Assembly: GCF_028641065.1 (NCBI RefSeq)
Contig: NC_073379.1
Location: 81,034,001-81,098,000, forward strand
DNA: 64,000 nt
Direction: 5' to 3'
Origin: Leucoraja erinacea
Taxonomy: Eukaryota
Shown here: piece by piece, positions 12,213 to 48,040 of the stretch
Numbering within the stretch: the stretch's first letter is position 1
How the letters are laid out: every line of letters starts with the position of its first letter
The notes under the pieces: model-generated
What the model was told of the DNA's origin: nothing
Databases searched by the model: none
The model's input: the letters and a program-made list of their open reading frames with translations, nothing else
Translations under genes and position numbers: made by a program

Positions 12213-13148
12213 CTAGTTTAAAGTCTCCCCAGTAGCCTTTGCAAATCTCCCCATCAGGATATTGGTCCCTCTCGAGTTCAAGTGCAACCCGTCCTTTCTG
12301 TACAGGTCGCACCTTCCCCAAAAGAGGTCCCAATGATCCAGAAACTTGAATCCATACCCACTGCACCAGTCCCTCCTCCACGCATTTATCCTCCACCTCG
12401 CTCCATTCCTACTCTCACTGTCGCGTGGCACAGGCAGTAATCCTGAGATTGTTACCTTTGCAGCCCTTCTCCTTAACTCTCTACCTAACTCCCTAAATTC
12501 TTCTTTCAGGACCTCTTCTCTTTTTTTACCTATGTTGTTGGTACCTATATGTACCACAACCTCAGGCTCCTCTCCCTCCCATTTCAGGATATCTTGGACA
12601 CGTTCAGACACATCCCTGACCCTGGCACCAGGGAGGCAAACTACCATCCGGGTCTCCTGTCTGCGTCCACAGAATCGCCTATCCGACCCCCTGACTATAG
12701 AGTCCCCTATTACAATTGCCCTCCTCTTCTTTTCCTTACCCTTCTGAGCAACAGGACCAGTCTTTGTGCCAGAGGCCCGGCCGCTGTCACTGCCCCCAGG
12801 TAGGCTGTTTCCCCCACCCTTACTCAAGCATGAGTACTTATTTTCAAGGTGTACAGCCACCGGGGTACTCACCAGTCCCTGCCTCTGCCCGTTGCCCTTC
12901 CTAACTGTGACCCAGTTTTCTGTCTCCCGTGGTCTTGTAGTGACCACCTCCCTGTAACTCCTTTCTATGACCTCCTCGCTCTCCCTGAGCAGACAGAGGT
13001 CATCGAGTTGCTGCTCCAGGTTCCTGACACGGTCCCTTAGGAGCCCCAACTCGACGTACCTGTCGCAGATGTGGACATCTGGAGGGCACTCAGACTCCAT
13101 GACCTCCCACATCTGACATCCAGAACAGTAAACTGCCCTGGCACTCAT
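12213..13148 (-). CDS. CR1 ORF1 protein (zinc finger/leucine zipper plus SGNH esterase-like domain), uninterrupted
   Basis: CSGC..HIC.R.., leucine heptads, IGDSIVRG, CLPGA, VHIGTNN, DGLHLN blocks; open from MSARAV to stop. Confidence 0.9.
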   Translation of the reverse strand: MSARAVYCSGCQMWEVMESECPPDVHICDRYVELGLLRDRVRNLEQQLDDLCLLRESEEVIERSYREVVTTRPRETENWVTVRKGNGQRQGLVSTPVAVHLENKYSCLSKGGGNSLPGGSDSGRASGTKTGPVAQKGKEKKRRAIVIGDSIVRGSDRRFCGRRQETRMVVCLPGARVRDVSERVQDILKWEGEEPEVVVHIGTNNIGKKREEVLKEEFRELGRELRRRAAKVTISGLLPVPRDSESRNGARWRINAWRRDWCSGYGFKFLDHWDLFWGRCDLYRKDGLHLNSRGTNILMGRFAKATGETLN

Positions 13149-13290
13149 TCTCCCCCTTATCCAAATACAATACAAAGCCTTACCCGGGATACAAGCCAAT
13201 CAGCTGCTTCCTCTGGTCCTCTTCCACCAATCAGAGGCTTCCACCAGAATCCTTCTCTGGAAGTGAGATGGAACGTTGCAGATTTGGGTA

Positions 13291-13653
13291 ACTCACAGCT
13301 CCAGGTAACTCCTCCTCGCACCAACGGCTCCCCGGGCCTCTGTAGAAGCAAGCCCCACGCTGTTTTTATACTCACAGCTCCAGGTAACTCCTCCTCGCAC
13401 CAACGGCTCCCCGGGCCTCTGTAGAAGCAAGCCCCGCGCTGTTTTTATACTCACAGCTCCAGGTAACTCCTCCTCGCACCAACGGCTCCCCGGGCCTCTG
13501 TAGAAGCAAGCCCCGCGCTGTTTTTATACTCACAGCTCCAGGTAACTCCTCCTCGCACCAACGGCTCCCCGGGCCTCTGTAGAAGCAAGCCCCGCGCTGT
13601 TTTTATACTCACAGCTCCAGGTAACTCCTCCTCGCACCAACGGCCCCCCGGGC
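13291..13653 (-). repeat. 79-bp tandem array (about 4.6 near-identical copies) upstream of CR1 ORF1
   Basis: Units start at 13291, 13370, 13449, 13528 and 13607; each full unit has TATAAAAA on the minus strand. Confidence 0.95.
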
Positions 13654-19380: not shown

Positions 19381-19728
19381 CTCCCTTTTTCAACTTTCTC
19401 CTCCCTACTCCAATCAGTCTAAAGAAGGGTTCCAACCCAAAGCATTGCCTGTCCACTCTCTCCCCAGGTGCTGCTTGACATGCAGAGTTTCTCCAGCACT
19501 TTTGCATCTTTTCTAGGTGGTTCAGTGTCAATTGCTGTTTCAAAATGTTGCCGTGAAGCATTTTGGTACCTCTTGATCCATAGTATACTAGTTGTTCTTG
19601 CTGTAAAGACACAAATGGCAGACAATAGGTACATGTACGTTGATGTGGCCTCAGATCTTCACAGGTGCTCCCCGACACCAAGAGCTGGCTTTTTCCCTAT
19701 ATTTCAGCTAAGCAATGAATACTATCAC

Positions 19729-21283: not shown

Positions 21284-21923
21284 GTGAGGTGATTTGATGG
21301 ATTCCTGTTGCATGGGCCATAGACTTGATAATGTGAACCAATCAGAAATAAGTGATACATTTATAGTTAGTTAATTATGTGCATTCATGATGATTTATTA
21401 GCAACTGATATTTCTATTGCCCAGTGATTGACCAGTTTTAACCTTTTGAGATGCTTCATGTTATGCCAACATGCCATCAGCAAAATGAAATGACGGAGTA
21501 ATTGAGGGCTTCACTGTGAATTTAGAAAAGAGCTGAGCTAGTCATTAATGGTAAGATATGTATTGACAAGATATCTCAGTGGTTAATAAAAGTTAACAAC
21601 ATTTATTAAAATTAATATCCCCAAAAGCACACAAGAATAAATAGTATTTTGTGGACACACATTAACCAGCTGTTATTCCTTAAATCGCAGCAGAAATTGA
21701 AATGTAATTAAGTAATGGTAAAATGGAGAAAGCGCCCTAGAAAACTGAGATTACATTTACTGAAAAACTTACCCAATAGTGTGGAATGAGGGCAACGTAA
21801 TGTTTAGCATGGATATTCTCGATGGTGGGAATACATCTACCAGGATTCCTGCTTGCTAACAAGATTTTCTTTGAAAAGAGTGACTGTTAAATGCTAAAAG
21901 AACAATACCTGGATGAAATTTAT

Positions 21924-23202: not shown

Positions 23203-23296
23203 GCCTTGAAACAACCAGATTTGGAAGTAGAAAACACCAAAGATGGTAACATTTCAAAAACATGGAAAGATACTCTCAGCAAGATTCAATCCACTG
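23203..23296 (+). CDS. Candidate coding exon (ALKQPDLEVENTKDGNISKTWKDTLSKIQST), phase 0-1
   Basis: gtcttacgttttctag acceptor and CTG|gtaaga donor; only one frame is open. Confidence 0.4.
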
Positions 23297-40279: not shown

Positions 40280-40400
40280 AGTTGGAAGCAAACTGTTGTA
40301 TTTAATTTCTTCAGGTGTGACCTTGAAACTGAAATTGTGGACTATTTATTGGTTGCTTGGTGATTATTTAAAATGCTTCATTTTCAGATGAGCCTAAAGC

Positions 40401-42164
40401 ATGGAAATGACTGAACCAATGTGCGTTCTAGACATCTACATGGAAGACTCCAAGAAAGACATAACTAAGTCGGATAAAGAGAGCATCCTGCCACTTTGTT
40501 CCACCTCACAAGATGCAAGTTCTTCCAGCCATATTATTTCAGAGCCAGATAAAGAAAGCAAAGCAGTCCAAGCAAGTGACAGCAAAATATGTTCATTTCC
40601 ACCACTGTTGGCATCTGAGAAAGAATCGCCTATTAAATTTAAAGGAGAGTTTCCATTTTCATCATTCCTACCTGAAAGAAAGACTCCACTCTCATCTATA
40701 GAAGAGAATGAACAGTCATGCCACAGAGCGACTCCATCCCCAACTCATAGAGAAATTCCACTCTCTTCCCATAATGAAACTTCACTCTGCTTCCCAACAA
40801 TGGCTCCATCTCCAGTGCAAAGAACTACTCCAGTCCCTTTCCAAAGTGAAACTCCATCCACCTTCCCTAGAGAGACTCCAAACATAGTTCGAGCACTGAC
40901 TCCACTCCCCTTTCAAAGCATGAATCCACTCAGTTTCAGACCATCGACTCCATTACCAGCCCACAGTGGGAGTCTACACCCCTCCCCCAGAGACACTCCT
41001 GCCTCGATGGAAGGAGCAACTCCAATGTTTTCCCAAAGTGAGTCTTCAGGCCCCTTACCAAGAGGGTCTCCAACTCCAACTCCAACTTCAACTTCAACCA
41101 CACCTTCCTTACAAAACAACAATCCACCCTGTTTCCGAACACCTACTCCATTTAATTTCAAAAGTGAAACTCCAGTTAATGTCCCAAGTGAGCCTCCTAC
41201 CTCATTGGAAGAAGCAACCCCACTCTCTTTCCAAAATGAGACACCATCCTCCAGAACAGCAACTCCAGCCCGCGGTCCATCATCAACATCATTCCTTTCC
41301 CAAAGGGAGACTACAGTCCCCTTCCCAAGAAGGTCTCCAACACCACTCTCTCTCCGAAGTGACACTCCAATCTGTTTAACCACAGCTACTCCGTTTTTCT
41401 TGCAATGTCAGACTACTGACTTTTTGCAAAGAGAGGCCTTAACCACACTTCATAGAGCAACTTCACTGGCTTTTCCAAATGAAACTATATCCTCTATCCA
41501 GATGGACGCACAAGCCCAAGTGCAAGGAACAACTCCGTTCCCATTTCAATTTGGGACTCCACTCTCTTTTGAAAGCAGAACTCTGTTCTCTTTGGATCCA
41601 GACTCTGTGTTTTTTTCCGGGGGAGAGTCAGGAGTGTCATCTGATATAGAGTCATCTTACCCCTCAATAAGTGGCACACCATTTCATCTGGAAAGAGAAA
41701 CTCAGACATCTCCCATTGGTCTGAGATCTGTCTGCACAGACATTATTCAGAGTGCTTGGTATGGTATCGCGGACAGGCCACACATGTTGCAAGCTGGGTT
41801 TAGAGGTCTGCAAAGCACAGTGCAGTTTGATACAGCAGAAAATCGAGAAGTTATCAAGGTTTTTGTAACAAATGTAAAAGATACTATTCTTTCATCTCTC
41901 AACACAGTGAACACCACTGTGCAAACAACAAGGACAAACATGACAGATAGTCTCTGCAATTTAGTTGTTGGTGTAGCGTCTCAGGTTGGGGAACTTTTCA
42001 GGCCACAGGCAGCATGCTCCACGACTCTCATGGAAGATCCTGAACAAATGGCTGGTACCCTTTCAGAAGAAAACATTCAACCCATGGCAAATCCAACAAA
42101 TTCTGAACAGGGTATGCATTCTAGCAATTCCTCTGAATGGACCGATTCTAGTCAAATGCAATGA
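40401..42164 (+). CDS. Uncharacterised 587-aa Ser/Thr/Pro-rich protein (or large exon) with about 40 degenerate octapeptide repeats
   Basis: 1764-bp open frame with no TE motifs in otherwise stop-rich DNA; 8-residue periodicity of T/S-P; acceptor ttttcag at 40381-40387; possible donor at 42111/42112. Confidence 0.8.
   Translation: MEMTEPMCVLDIYMEDSKKDITKSDKESILPLCSTSQDASSSSHIISEPDKESKAVQASDSKICSFPPLLASEKESPIKFKGEFPFSSFLPERKTPLSSIEENEQSCHRATPSPTHREIPLSSHNETSLCFPTMAPSPVQRTTPVPFQSETPSTFPRETPNIVRALTPLPFQSMNPLSFRPSTPLPAHSGSLHPSPRDTPASMEGATPMFSQSESSGPLPRGSPTPTPTSTSTTPSLQNNNPPCFRTPTPFNFKSETPVNVPSEPPTSLEEATPLSFQNETPSSRTATPARGPSSTSFLSQRETTVPFPRRSPTPLSLRSDTPICLTTATPFFLQCQTTDFLQREALTTLHRATSLAFPNETISSIQMDAQAQVQGTTPFPFQFGTPLSFESRTLFSLDPDSVFFSGGESGVSSDIESSYPSISGTPFHLERETQTSPIGLRSVCTDIIQSAWYGIADRPHMLQAGFRGLQSTVQFDTAENREVIKVFVTNVKDTILSSLNTVNTTVQTTRTNMTDSLCNLVVGVASQVGELFRPQAACSTTLMEDPEQMAGTLSEENIQPMANPTNSEQGMHSSNSSEWTDSSQMQ
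40677..41720 (+). repeat. Degenerate 24-nt coding tandem repeat
   Basis: Pro at residues 96,112,120,136,144,152,160,168,176,184,200,208,224, then 242-282 and 315-331 in steps of 8, and 379,387; recurring ACTCCA. Confidence 0.85.
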
Positions 42165-42581
42165 GTAGAATAGCCAGAGGAACTCATCTTGTATGTGGCA
42201 AAAAAGTAAAATGTCAAAAAATTGTATTTCTTGCAGTACATTTGTTAATTAAGAAAGTGTATTTCCCATTCACGATTGAAGGATTATTTGTTGTATTAAT
42301 GTACCTTATGTTTAGACTTTGTTTTGTTATAAGGACATATTTAATTTGTACTTCTTGCAGAACTGATTATGAAAGCTCATTTAGCACTTTAAGTAAGCAC
42401 TAGAAATATGCATCTGAACCTTTTGGTGTTCTTAAGTTAAATTGTTTCCTGATTTTTTTTTCTGTGGCACTCTGCCCATGTAGCATCTCAGTTGTGGGGC
42501 TAGAATTAGGTACAAAATGCATCCAAGAAAGGAAATGCTAGATATTTTAAAGTGGACTTCGGGGTATTTTTTTTTTTTGAG

Positions 42582-42823: not shown

Positions 42824-43200
42824 TGTTTGCCTATTCCTCCATTTGTTCTCTTGCCTTCAGTTCTGCTGAAATCCAACCCAATCCTTGGCAATATTTGATA
42901 AGGTCCATCAGTTCTTAATTCTAGAAACAACGAATTGCAGATTCTGGTTAATACACAAAAGGACATGAAGTGCGAGAATAACTAGTAAGATTAAACGAGA
43001 AATTACCATTTTGAAGTTTGATTGTTATTTTATGAGGAGTACGTTGAGGGAATATGCGAAGAAACCCGCCAGGACGCATGCGTGTCATTCTTCAAAGCAA
43101 CGGTGTGAAATCACAGATAACTGTAATGACTGAACATAGTAAGATTAGAGTAGAAAATACCAGTTGAGTATATGATCAAGGATGGGAGCGGAGGGCAAGC

Positions 43201-43307
43201 ATTCCCTCAACGTACTCCTCATAAAATAACGATCAAACTTTGAACTGGTAAGTTCTCGTTTAATCTTACTATTTTACTTCGGAGTCACGTGAGTGACTAC
43301 GTGAAGA
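43201..43307 (-). other. DIRS internal complementary region (ICR)
   Basis: 43201-43270 is complementary to 42984-43053, and 43271-43307 to 47607-47643. Confidence 0.9.
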
Positions 43308-43518
43308 TTTCAAAGCTCTGTGATTTCAAGCCGTGGAAACGAGTCCATGCATCACATTGCCTTAATTGACTGTGGGAGGAATTGTGTTAACATGTTTAGA
43401 CATGAATCCAACATTGAAATCCATGATAAATTGTTAACAACAAATTATAGCCCCTATTTATGGGGTGAAATTATATTATAGAACTTAAAATTGGCTCTGC
43501 AAAGTTCCAGTTTAACTA

Positions 43519-44280
43519 TTAGTTTGTGGTAGAATAGTTGGAACATTTTCCCCTGATCCATCCTGCTGTTTCGAGGATTTGGTTCATTGGTACATCCAAC
43601 TCCATAGCTGCCGATGTAGTTGCAGCCCTGGTGGAATAATATTTGAATATGTTAGTATCCACCCCAGCTGTTGTTAAAACCTGTTTCAGCCATCTGGAAA
43701 TAGTTTGAACCAACACTTTTTTGTGGGTTTGTTTGTGGCTGATTAGTAGTGCCATCTCATAGCCTCAGATGTTTTTGGTGTTCTCCATATAGAACAATAA
43801 TTGGCTTATTATACAGAGACGATATCTGTAGGGTAATCCCTAAATTTTATTTTGAGGCCAGATGATCCCGGTCTGTTCTGTTTGACTAATTCATAATATG
43901 AAACGTTATATTCCTGTTGAAGAAGTCACATAGTCCAGCCTAAACTTATGTACGACTGTACCCTTAGTGCCGTGACCAAAGCCATCAGCATGAATGGTTT
44001 GTGCGTCAGTCTTTGCAGGGACAGAGCTGTTGCTGGAGACCAATTCCTTAGCAATGTTAGGGCAATACTCATATCCCATTTAGAGAGTACCTGGTTCTTG
44101 GGGATAGATATTAAAAATTCCCCTCATAAGTTTGGTTACCAGGGATGAGTTCCAACAGAATGATGCTCTGATCCTCGCCATAGATATGTTGATAGGGTAC
44201 TTCTGGCGCAGTTAATGGCACTGTAACTGAGCCCCTCATCATAATGGAGGCTTGCCAGGAATTCCAGAACAGACATTATG
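43519..44280 (-). pseudogene. DIRS tyrosine recombinase remnant
   Basis: ALLISHKQTHKKV..TISRWLKQVL..AGVD..YSTRAATTSAA..ILETAGW (the HxxR His appears as Tyr). Confidence 0.8.
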
Positions 44281-44361
44281 TTCATCGAACTGCAGGTGAT
44301 GTTGTTTTTGTGACTATATATCTCCTATTTCCTGATTTATACCAGATATAGTTTTTGGTGG

Positions 44362-44418
44362 TTACACAAAAAAGCTGGAGAAACTCAGCGGGTGCAGCAG
44401 CATCTATGGAGCGAAGGA
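44362..44418. mobile_element. Short Penelope-derived insertion in the DIRS
   Basis: 12-bp TSD AGTTTTTGGTGG at 44350-44361 and 44419-44430. Confidence 0.75.
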
Positions 44419-46734
44419 AGTTTTTGGTGGACTGTCTGTGGCCGCTGAGATAATGTTCAATGTTCGGTCTGCCAGTCCCAGTTACAGTAGAGGTTTCTTT
44501 AGACTCTACAAATTGATAGTTTTTTTTGTTTTTCACATGGATGGGTTCCCCTGTTGCGGGATGAACCAATAATCTGGTTGTTTCAGGATGGTGATGCATG
44601 GTTAAACCCCATGTTGAGTATCACAGGGAACCATGGATAAGTAGGCCAATCGGCACTACCAATTAACAGACGCTGAGTCTTGTTCTATTTTTCGTAATAC
44701 CCGACTGATGATGCAGAAAAGGAGAGAATGCTTAGATAAACAATTGCCCCCTCAATGAAGTGAAAAGCATCTGTCCCTGCTGTCCCAGGGTCTGGTTCCC
44801 AAGAAACACAGTTTGGTAACTGGTGATTAAGTCTTATTTTATTGAATTTGCGTGACCTGATGTCTGTCACTGAATTTTGAGTTACCTGGTAGGTAAGTAG
44901 CTGATATTCCAATATTTTTCTGGATACACCATTACCAAATTGTTTTAGTCAGATTGTCACTCTGTAGTCTAACACGCTGGTGATTTATCCCAGAGCAGTA
45001 TAACTTTAGGCCATAGAATGCACCACACATTTCCAGGTAGTTTATGCCCAGTGTCTGTGATAATGATGTCTCCTGTTCCTTTCATCTACCTCCACAGATG
45101 GAGATGGAATTGGTAGTACCCCAACCAAGCGCACTGGCATCAGCTTTTAGCACCACTAAGGGTTTGCTGATAACAATAGGGTTGGAACAATGCCAAATGT
45201 TATCCCTCCACCATTTTAATTCCATAATCTTTGATTGGTGGCTTATTGGTCTGTCGAAATAACCAGTATTAACTTTGAGTGTTTGTATTTTGCCCTTTGT
45301 AGATTTTTGGTAATACAAAGGTCCAAATTGTGTGGCTGGAAAGGCAGACACTATATGCCAATTATACTTGCTACCAATCTGATAGACGGTTCACTGATGT
45401 CAGTGGGGTTATTGCAGGTCTCAGTTAAGACTGTAGCCTTGTCCTTTGGTAAAGTCACCGACATGTGAGCTGTCAATAGTGAACCCCAAATAATCCATTA
45501 TGTTGGTAGGCGTTAGTTTAGATTTAACTGGATGGATGATAACCCCAGTTTTCACCCAATTGTATGGTGGCTGTTACAGCTAGTTAGGCCAACTCCAAAG
45601 TTATGCCCACATTTAGTATGATCATATGATTATGTATTTGGTAGCTCTATACTGCCAGAGCTGCCCCATCCAGTTGCATTTTTTAAATAATGTTTGTGAT
45701 CAGTCCGTGTAGGCACTGAATAGTAAGCATCTTTTAGTTCGATGCTAGCCATGGAGTAGCCTTTGGAAATCAGTCCTTTAGCAGTTACCAGTTCCCATTT
45801 TGTACTGAATATATAGTACAATGTATTCCAGCCAATCGTTTTGGGTTTACCCATTACCCCTTTTGCACAATTCAATGGTATATCCCTGGATACTGCTTAG
45901 GATATAAGTGTCTGTAGTTAATATACACCATGTATCCAAAAGAGTGTAATCTCTCACCAATGTGTGTATTATCCACTCTTCCTATAATTTGTAAGAGACC
46001 AGACCCATCTACCTCCATTGTTACCAGTGGAAGTTTGCTTCTTCTGTGTGGTCTTCGTTGAGGTTGAGGCGCCGGTGTCTGGGTTTGTTTTTGGGTTGGG
46101 GTTTGTACATCTTCCAGAAAGGCCGGTCTGGGTTATGGTTTAAAAGACCGCTGTCCTGTATGCCCGGCCTTTGAGCTTTCACCAGCTTCTCTTGTTCTGC
46201 TGGTGGGTGCATAAGGGTGCTGTCTTTGGCTGTAGGAGATCCTTAATGTTGTCGCCTTTATGAACCCCAGGGCTTTCCTAAGTCCTGCTCCGACATGTTT
46301 CCAGATGCTAGTTCCACGACTGGAACATTCAGGGATGCGCAGTTTCCTGGTCCCAAGTATTTTTGCAGTGGTGTCCATCGTGGTCTGGCTGTATGTATTT
46401 GGACACCATGACCAGTAGATTTTGCCTTCCTGCACCCCCTGCACACTTGTAGTTTTGTTCGTCAAAACCCCTCTTCAGGGTCAGCCCAGAATTGACCCCC
46501 CCAGTACTCCCCTCTGACGAGGGAGATGCACTGTGCAGCCCTACAAGAGGTGCCGCTGTGGGTTTTACATAGTGCCCACAGTGACTAGACTCCATCTCCC
46601 GGAGCCTGTCATGTTGGAGCTCGGCTCCATAAGCCGCTCCAACCGGCTCCAGCGCTCACGGTCGCTGGCCGCCCAAAGTCGGACTCATCAGTCCTCGACT
46701 CTTTTGGTTTTCTTCTTGCCTTCCCGCCCAGACG

Positions 46735-47525
46735 CAGTGTTTAATCTGGCCGGTGCGGGGGCGAAGATGGGCACAGCTGTTCCCTTACGGGTGATTCCTG
46801 TGCCGCCGGCCGCTGCTGGCGTCCGCAACACCGCGGTCTTCCCCCGCCAGTCGCAGCTCTGGTCGACTTCTTTGTCTTGTGCATGTTTCCCCCACCTGTA
46901 GAACAGTATGGGAACAATAAAGACCGCAGTATCACTTACCTGCAGGTCCAGGCTTAAAACTTGCCGTTAAATGGGAACGTCTTCCATCTCTCCTCCTGCC
47001 GTTTTGATTTGTCAAAGCCAACGGCTCCATTCTGTATAGTCTCCCGCCCGGCCATGGTGTTTAATCTGGCCGGTGCGGGAGCAAAGTCGGGGACAGCTGT
47101 TCCCTTACGGGTAATTCCTGTGCTGCCTGCCGTTATTTGCGCAGCTCTCCATGTTTCCCCACCTGTGAAACAGTATGGGGAGAATAAAGACCGCAGTTTC
47201 ACTTACCTGCAGGTCCTGGTTTAAACTGTCGCTACGGGGGAGCGTCGTTCTACCCCGCCTCCTGCCGTTTCGACTTGTCAAAGTCGACGGTCCCATTCTG
47301 AATTGTCTCCCGCCCGGCCGTGGTGTTCTGGCCGGCACGGGACCAAAGGTCGGCACAGCAGTTCCCACTTACGGGGCTTGTGCCTTCAGCTGCTGCTGGC
47401 TCCCGCAACTTCACGGTCCTCCCCAGCCAACTTCACTCGCCGCACTTGTCCCCCTGTGTAAAACAGCGTGGGGACAAAAACTACCGCAGAGTAAATCACT
47501 TACCTGCAGGTCGCGGTTTCAAACT
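46735..47525 (-). repeat. Three diverged tandem units of about 270-300 bp in the DIRS 5' region
   Basis: acttacctgcaggtc recurs at 46934, 47201 and 47498; tgtttaatctggccggtgcggg recurs at 46738 and 47057. Confidence 0.85.
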
Positions 47526-47709
47526 TACCGCTGCGGGGGAACGCTCCACCCGCCTGTCGTTTCGCAAGCGTGAAAGCGATAGGACATGCATGCGTCCTGG
47601 CGGGGTTCTTCATGTAGTCACTCACGTGACTCCGAAGTAAAATCAGCAGGTCAGGCAGCACCTCTGGAGAACATGGGTAGGTTACGTTTCAGCTTGAGAC
47701 ACTTCTTAA

Positions 47710-48040
47710 TTGAACTTGAAAGCATTGGAGGCTGAAGGTGAAATCAAAGAGCATACAAAATCATTAGGGACATAGACAAGGTGAATGGTGACAGTCTTTA
47801 CTCAAAGTAGAGGAGCTCAGTACTAGAGGGTATATGTTTCAGGTGGGCGAGGAAAGAATTAAAAGATACCTGAAGGGCAACTTCTTTAGTCAAAGCATGG
47901 TGCATATATGGAATGAGCTGCTAGAGGAAGCAGTAGATGCAGGTATGATGGCAACATTTAAAATGCATGTTTACAGGTAAATCATTGGAAATGGTTTAGA
48001 GCAATATGGACTAATGTAGGCACATGCAACCAGCTCAGTT
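47710..48040 (+). mobile_element. Old CR1 3' fragment
   Basis: Degenerate RRLKVKS..TRGY..WNELL motifs. Confidence 0.6.

Follow-up and report, generated by a model that had tools for sequence, protein, structure and literature searches.

What does the skate carry in the gap between RORB and the annexin gene? The window, by which we mean the whole 64,000-nucleotide stretch of Leucoraja erinacea DNA analysed here, holds on its plus strand an open reading frame (ORF) of 587 aa (40401..42164), whose ATG lies in a strong Kozak context with A at −3 and G at +4. It is the longest of the 6635 open frames in the window, the runner-up being a LINE-like frame of 435 aa; the preliminary description of this DNA had stated that no other long frame is unrelated to transposable elements (TEs). 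Open frames in the window have a mean length of 18 codons, and the chance of meeting 588 stop-free codons is about 3e-14. The ORF is single copy, with one match in the skate genome by protein and by DNA alike. Four of its first 15 codons encode Met (P 6e-4, calculated after the fact) and an out-of-frame ATG upstream overlaps its start; translation would begin at the ATG at 40401. Neither a signal peptide nor a transmembrane (TM) segment is evident, again as first described: the N-terminus is not hydrophobic and the best 19-residue hydropathy is 0.96. A variant polyadenylation-like hexamer follows at 42205..42210 (+), and no canonical polyadenylation signal was found from the stop codon to 46000.

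The bulk of the ORF is a repeat. Residues 93-439 (40677..41717, +) consist of about 40 diverged 24-bp units of eight residues each, in which R/S-E-T-P-L-S-F-Q are the commonest residues and S, T and P together make up 45%. Repeat detection bore out the proposed period of eight: residue identity is 0.22 at lag 8 (z 9.1) and peaks again at 16, 24, 32, 40, and 48, and DNA identity at lag 24 is 0.46 as compared to 0.27. A 24-bp profile confines the units to residues 93-439 and places essentially all of them in the ORF frame; the late units 400, 408, and 416 score near background once left out of the profile, and 37% of the bases in the units depart from the majority of their column. The array had been portrayed as about 40 T/S-P octapeptides with regularly spaced Phe. 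The period is real, but S/T-P occurs in only 20 of 40 in-register units and Phe in 18 of 40; the 31 S/T-P sites include 24 T-P, most of them in the eight-residue register. Likewise, register shifts are indeed whole codons, but this follows from the open frame and adds no separate evidence. The predicted disorder held up in the Atlas model (pLDDT 0.35). A young hexamer microsatellite (T-P-T-P) lies within the array at 41068..41098 (+).

Outside the array, 239 further codons are open (chance 3e-6). Residues 447-545 (41739..42035, +), a stretch that the preliminary description passed over, are predicted to form an amphipathic helix, with the main helix at 479-532 (pLDDT about 70-75); folded alone with AlphaFold2, residues 438-545 gave helices, the longest again spanning 479-532, at a mean pLDDT of 63. 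The hydrophobic period peaks at 3.66 (11 residues; P 0.016), an amphipathic period as seen in the 11-mers of apolipoproteins and perilipins. Searching the skate genome with this helix returned two long frames at weak genome-wide E-values, one on C11 at 35.84 Mb (E 0.0087; identity 31% across 86 aa) and one on C30 at 15.29 Mb (E 5.8); these two match each other at E 1e-5 to 3e-5, the C11 frame recovers the ORF in the reverse search at E 0.03, and composition-adjusted BLASTP of the helix arrives at 8e-5 per pair. Since periodicity can mimic homology, shuffles within the 11-residue register served as control. The ORF helix (on C3) and its C11 counterpart score 96–97, compared to shuffle maxima of 74–85 and 37 for the reversed sequence, with 23% identity on the true diagonal as against at most 12% on diagonals shifted by 11; the match runs along one ungapped 75-codon diagonal, with DNA identities of 0.47/0.61/0.33 at codon positions 1/2/3. 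For C11 and C30 the score is 125 (shuffle maximum 101), and for C3 and C30 it is 78 (P ~0.002 against register-keeping shuffles). Unrelated 33-bp tandem repeats score 91–94 against the C30 helix, so the C30 link is possibly convergent; against the ORF helix, such repeats reach only 36–40. Judged by sequence, the ORF helix is homologous to the C11 last exon and probably also to that on C30.

The gene had been reported as unrecognised, and no named homologue was found; its C-terminal helix, however, does have paralogues in the skate genome. Taken by itself the array looks de novo, but a de novo gene should be without homology to coding sequence, which the helix possesses. The genome search gave no paralogue of the N-terminal 100 residues. 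Matches at C7 and C35 were rejected as helix paralogues, being 33-bp tandem repeats, and one at C3:112 Mb carries an internal stop. The C35 array (L101:1273-2640; G000:C35:13.0 Mb) has plus-strand open frames of 454 and 401 aa. A Harbinger Myb origin of the helix was dropped when no Myb match appeared in the frames upstream of the ORF.

Which genes carry the paralogous exons? NCBI’s isoform X1 of a skate TRIM8-like gene (P0010, XP_055498998.1, titled ‘uncharacterized protein LOC129701679’) has the C11 frame as its last exon. Isoform X2 leaves the exon earlier, without the helix, and is 90% conserved in sharks; the helix sits on an alternative read-through isoform. The gene (L070:1288-2250; G000:C11:35.843 Mb, minus strand) lacks PRY/SPRY, and X1 reads through the splice donor for 240 codons that include the helix. 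TRIM genes vary in their C-terminal domain, according to a published account (PMC3137616). X1 shares with the ORF the 11-residue helix and a short tail motif, at 31% identity over 86 aa, and its last exon is entered through a phase-1 acceptor. Unlike the ORF, it has RING, B-box, and coiled-coil exons upstream, and its linker contains a single S/T-P and nothing like the 8-mer array. In P0017 and P0019, cysteine-rich exons of a TNF receptor run into the C30 frame; both are likely mRNAs, since their contigs measure just 1578 and 2456 bases, against an exon span of >8 kb, and a second genomic copy was not found. The product has no TM segment. This transcript resembles the ORF in closing with an 11-residue-periodic helix, which lies on a last exon (the C11 and C30 last exons are both spliced in at phase 1); unlike the ORF, it encodes cysteine-rich TNFR domains, is predicted to be secreted, and is devoid of S/T-P, and its link is the weaker one. 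With signal-like and cysteine-rich exons (L071:1114-1869, L082:3246-8068; G000:C30:15.283-15.292 Mb), the C30 gene is a candidate soluble decoy receptor; it has no named record and adjoins a conventional membrane TNFR and a cyclin L-like gene. Its helix touches the Pfam Apolipoprotein family at E 7e-6, with 26 bits as compared to a cut-off of 90. A tblastn search with P0010 and P0017 for TRIM or TNFR sequence upstream of the ORF matched the helix only.

How has the frame evolved? Two related organisms offer contigs for comparison, B spanning the locus and C nearly so; B differs from the window at 57 letters in 2316 bases and C at 101. The indels listed inside the ORF for both relatives are of 3, 9, 9, and 3 bases, all four multiples of three (the two 9-base indels are possibly one event), whereas the six in the 552 flanking bases, of 1, 2, 1, 4, 1, and 2 bases, include none. 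That all six frameshifting indels fall in the flanks has a P of 2e-4, of 0.013–0.027 if the flank rate is threefold, and of 0.014 for B alone; three of the in-ORF sites sit in DNA with a 3- or 6-base periodicity, where such indels arise anyway. The B and C records each have six further gap letters beyond those listed, a net six bases missing by record length, and judging from these lengths the hexamer tract is the likely site of this difference, which would most likely be a single hexamer unit. Within the array, none of the 40 units contains a stop, while 11.1 are expected by neutral simulation (0 of 5000 runs had none) and 4.7 when columns are shuffled, the stricter control (P 0.004); the units share ancestry, and both P values are optimistic. 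These data uphold the earlier proposal of an old repeat expansion under selection for an open frame. The last 185 codons are also open, with one change, in the Logan fragment P0006.

The residues behave differently from the frame. The substitution rows (40 of 121 listed) all concern B; for C, 2.5 stops would be expected under neutrality. The 36 listed ORF substitutions between window and B comprise 27 replacement, nine silent, and no nonsense changes, against a neutral expectation of 9.5 silent and 1.15 nonsense, and the lack of nonsense changes says little by itself (P 0.30). The resulting dN/dS is about 1.1, a value near 1 that the preliminary description had itself named as speaking against its reading. 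Among units, pN/pS is 0.97 overall, 0.86 at T-P codons, and 0.70 in the T codon column. One of the 27 replacements falls in the helix, where 4.6 are expected (P 0.04; Fisher P 0.15, hence borderline). The frame is preserved while residues drift, and amino-acid change in the array is approximately neutral. Disordered regions can retain function through bulk features despite low sequence conservation, as one study reports (PMC6634968).

Searches of protein collections yielded no relative of the whole ORF. It matches no Pfam family, a word-based protein search found no homologue among 8000 candidates for the whole ORF or among 344 for residues 385-560, and a search of shorter proteins found only the ORF’s own fragment among 2966. 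A HMMER scan with residues 401-587 gave four matches, its own fragment and three unrelated repeat proteins that were rejected on inspection. The sequence is present in the ESM Atlas, which offered no usable match and shows neither novelty nor absence, and searches of the PDB by sequence and fold returned nothing significant. No NCBI/UniRef protein for the ORF was found, though the collection includes skate and shark RefSeq proteins, with which the C11 exon fragment, but not the ORF fragment, clustered. Likewise, no viral or TE homologue emerged, a weak result given the mainly prokaryotic scope of the viral collection. Disordered proteins that grew from repeats are familiar, as is exon shuffling, and the literature searched, largely without subscription journals, contains no description of the ORF’s array combined with a three-locus helix. 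Two RNA runs of unspecified tissue gave no reads on the locus, with only ~5–6% of each run covered, which is too little to judge; that expression is narrow, for example in the gonad, is a guess that we make with little confidence.

The ORF sits between RORB, which we take to be the nearby nuclear receptor (encoded on the opposite strand, with its first exon 92 kb ahead of the ORF), and an annexin gene at 82.15 Mb, with a TRPM6/7-type kinase exon at C3:80.74 Mb. The neighbourhood corresponds to the human ANXA1-RORB-TRPM6 block, whose gap harbours lncRNAs such as RORB-AS1 and is not known to contain a protein gene. Of the ~1.07 Mb downstream gap, 325 kb were read. OTUD4/ALG13 was rejected as host gene for the ORF, the ALG13-like piece being a lone first exon. 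This exon 1, complete with donor, lies in the first intron of RORB (L003:9043-9123; G000:C3:80.953 Mb, +) and resembles the ALG13 gene on C12 at 81% in protein and at 71% in DNA over ~600 bases; further ALG13 exons were not found. Several other elements are of separate interest: an open, exon-like stretch of the minus strand (window 21773-21884), bounded by good splice sites and weakly similar to a spectrin repeat (E 0.03), in surroundings that are otherwise empty; a degenerate element with repeated ends, DIRS-like by eye (42980-47710), and a similar one in L011 with a tyrosine-recombinase N-terminal match; a CR1-type ORF1 (12213-13653) that encodes an SGNH esterase domain and has on its 5′ side a 79-bp tandem array that is nearly perfect; and, within the gene desert, disrupted gag/pol frames of retroviral or LTR type (L053:2448-5289; G000:C3:81.24 Mb).

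Could further exons precede the ORF? Two predicted acceptor-like sites, not mentioned in the preliminary description, lie shortly ahead of the ATG. The stronger one (40295..40315, +; exon from 40315, score 6.1) would feed a 5′ UTR, because two in-frame stops precede the ATG. From the weaker one (40368..40388, +; exon from 40388, score 2.2), no phase reads into the ORF in the skate genome. Relative C has one extra base behind 40400, which brings the 40388 acceptor in frame with the ATG at phase 1; because of this base, the stretch before the ATG is not coding in all three species. A third acceptor-like site, at 40432, is in frame and scores −3.4. The best-scoring exon candidate between RORB and the ORF is a unique, open stretch of 94 bp that runs from phase 0 to 1 (23203..23296, +); one other site is comparable in 341 kb of unique control sequence-strand, by a threshold set after the fact. 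None of 123 upstream plus-strand frames (142 listed, 19 TE-like ones left out) matches Pfam.

Together, these data suggest that the ORF is very probably a functional coding exon, and likely the last coding exon, possibly the sole one, of a genuine gene of the skate lineage. As to its product, the reading we lean toward, at slightly below an even chance, is a helix-anchored flexible spacer or brush whose tail is kept for length and composition rather than for exact sites. The array would have arisen by expansion of a 24-bp minisatellite within a terminal exon of greater age, leaving a disordered, S/T/P-rich tail that ends in the predicted 11-residue-periodic amphipathic helix. This helix might self-associate or bind a surface, thereby anchoring or bundling the protein, with the tail as flexible spacer or brush that proline-directed kinases could tune in bulk. 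Since it closes a TRIM isoform that is cytosolic as well as a TNF receptor predicted to be secreted, the helix may be a module that works independently of context.

One competing explanation is that of the preliminary description, a multisite phospho-array under selection as a target of proline-directed kinases and Pin1; it would work like the C-terminal repeats of SPT5 or the neurofilament KSP repeats. The 31 S/T-P sites and their register fit this idea, as do the missing signal peptide, the comparatively low pN/pS in the T codon column, and an Arg two or three residues upstream of 13 sites; Arg upstream of S/T-P is the context of DYRK-type kinases. Yet half of the units lack S/T-P, the full CDK consensus is present at 2 of 31 sites and the MAPK one at 1 of 31, and T-P codons are equally conserved at silent and replacement positions; the motif simply reflects the coding content of the 24-bp unit. 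Among the 36 substitutions, three changed S/T-P sites, with one gained and two lost on the window’s branch, where neutrality predicts 2.3 losses. With dN/dS near 1 and sites turning over, a selected multisite phospho-array is not supported and is distinctly unlikely, while bulk phosphorylation of the tail is possible. We rate as still less probable a secreted mucin-like glycoprotein, in which an upstream exon would supply the signal peptide, the array would be O-glycosylated, and the helix would oligomerise, as it might in the soluble TNFR paralogue. The S/T/P-rich repeats are those of a mucin, and the C30 gene indeed pairs a signal-like exon with the lack of a TM segment; however, the ORF itself has neither signal peptide nor TM anchor, no acceptor of reasonable score is in frame in the skate genome, Pfam reports no mucin domain, and the five N-glycosylation sequons are about the number expected by chance. 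The hydrophobic exon candidate at 19517-19634 has no ATG in frame, and the phase of its end does not fit.

A different question is whether the ORF once belonged to a larger gene. It may be the terminal exon of a multi-exon gene whose link was cut when the lineage of window and B lost one base ahead of the ATG. Both paralogous exons enter at phase 1, which is also the phase that the extra base of relative C confers on the 40388 acceptor and in which the candidate exon 23203-23296 ends; dN/dS and the lack of a named protein agree as well. Nevertheless, any one-base indel links some phase, making the match about a one-in-three event, and the direction of the indel needs an outgroup. No Pfam domain is visible in the 123 upstream frames, nor any TRIM/TNFR remnant, no stop or frameshift has arisen since the split from B, and dN/dS is near 1 also among units while their frame was held. 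We consider this history unlikely, if less so than the phospho-array. Most of its weight lies with rescue by an internal ATG start, where the mechanism would equal that of the helix-anchored spacer; an early pseudogene is a very improbable outcome, slightly more so than the mucin. Least credible by far is that there is no gene at all, but a decayed minisatellite, a transposon piece, or an endogenous viral remnant left open by chance. The neutral pattern of divergence between units and the missing protein record would suit such a remnant, but not the absence of about 11 expected stops, the open codons outside the array, the frame-keeping indels, or a helix conserved in a coding-type pattern; a transposon or virus would moreover be expected in multiple copies and with relatives, and the ORF is single copy with no viral relative.

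Returning to the helix-anchored spacer, its end-module raises a broader, rather speculative scenario, which on present sequence comparisons we hold to be possible but unlikely: skates may harbour an undescribed mobile last exon that encodes an oligomerising 11-residue helix and was shuffled onto unrelated genes. In the TRIM ligase, the helix would stand where PRY/SPRY usually ends the protein; in the TNF receptor, it would replace the membrane anchor, creating a natural multimeric decoy; and in the RORB-annexin desert, it would have seeded a new gene, whose bulk later grew from the minisatellite. If true, the spacer reading adds an unannotated vertebrate gene to a conserved gene desert and provides a clean natural example of a tail that holds its frame as all its residues drift, and hence a test of whether selection on disordered regions acts on bulk properties. 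The small, apparently unnamed family of helical end-modules, in a TRIM ligase and a soluble TNF receptor, would be relevant to exon shuffling in cartilaginous-fish immunity.

How does the ORF compare with known systems? The C-terminal repeats of SPT5, the KSP repeats of neurofilament-H, and the T-P region of SF3B1 are likewise disordered S/T-P arrays near aromatic or charged residues. These tails sit on conserved folded domains and retain their sites, whereas sites in the skate ORF turn over at a nearly neutral rate, and Pfam, protein, and PDB searches revealed no sequence homology between them. For the helix, neither the ORF nor its C30 relative matches an apolipoprotein or perilipin family profile above cut-off; still, with a hydrophobic period of 3.62–3.66 and small residues, the skate helices resemble the 11-mer helices of apolipoproteins, perilipin-4, and synucleins. 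GPRIN1 and C2orf16/SPATA31H1 differ from the ORF in unit and locus, and the ORF has no GRIN or other Pfam domain. What these proteins share with it is the overall layout: one large coding exon with a degenerate 8-mer array, followed by a short C-terminal part.
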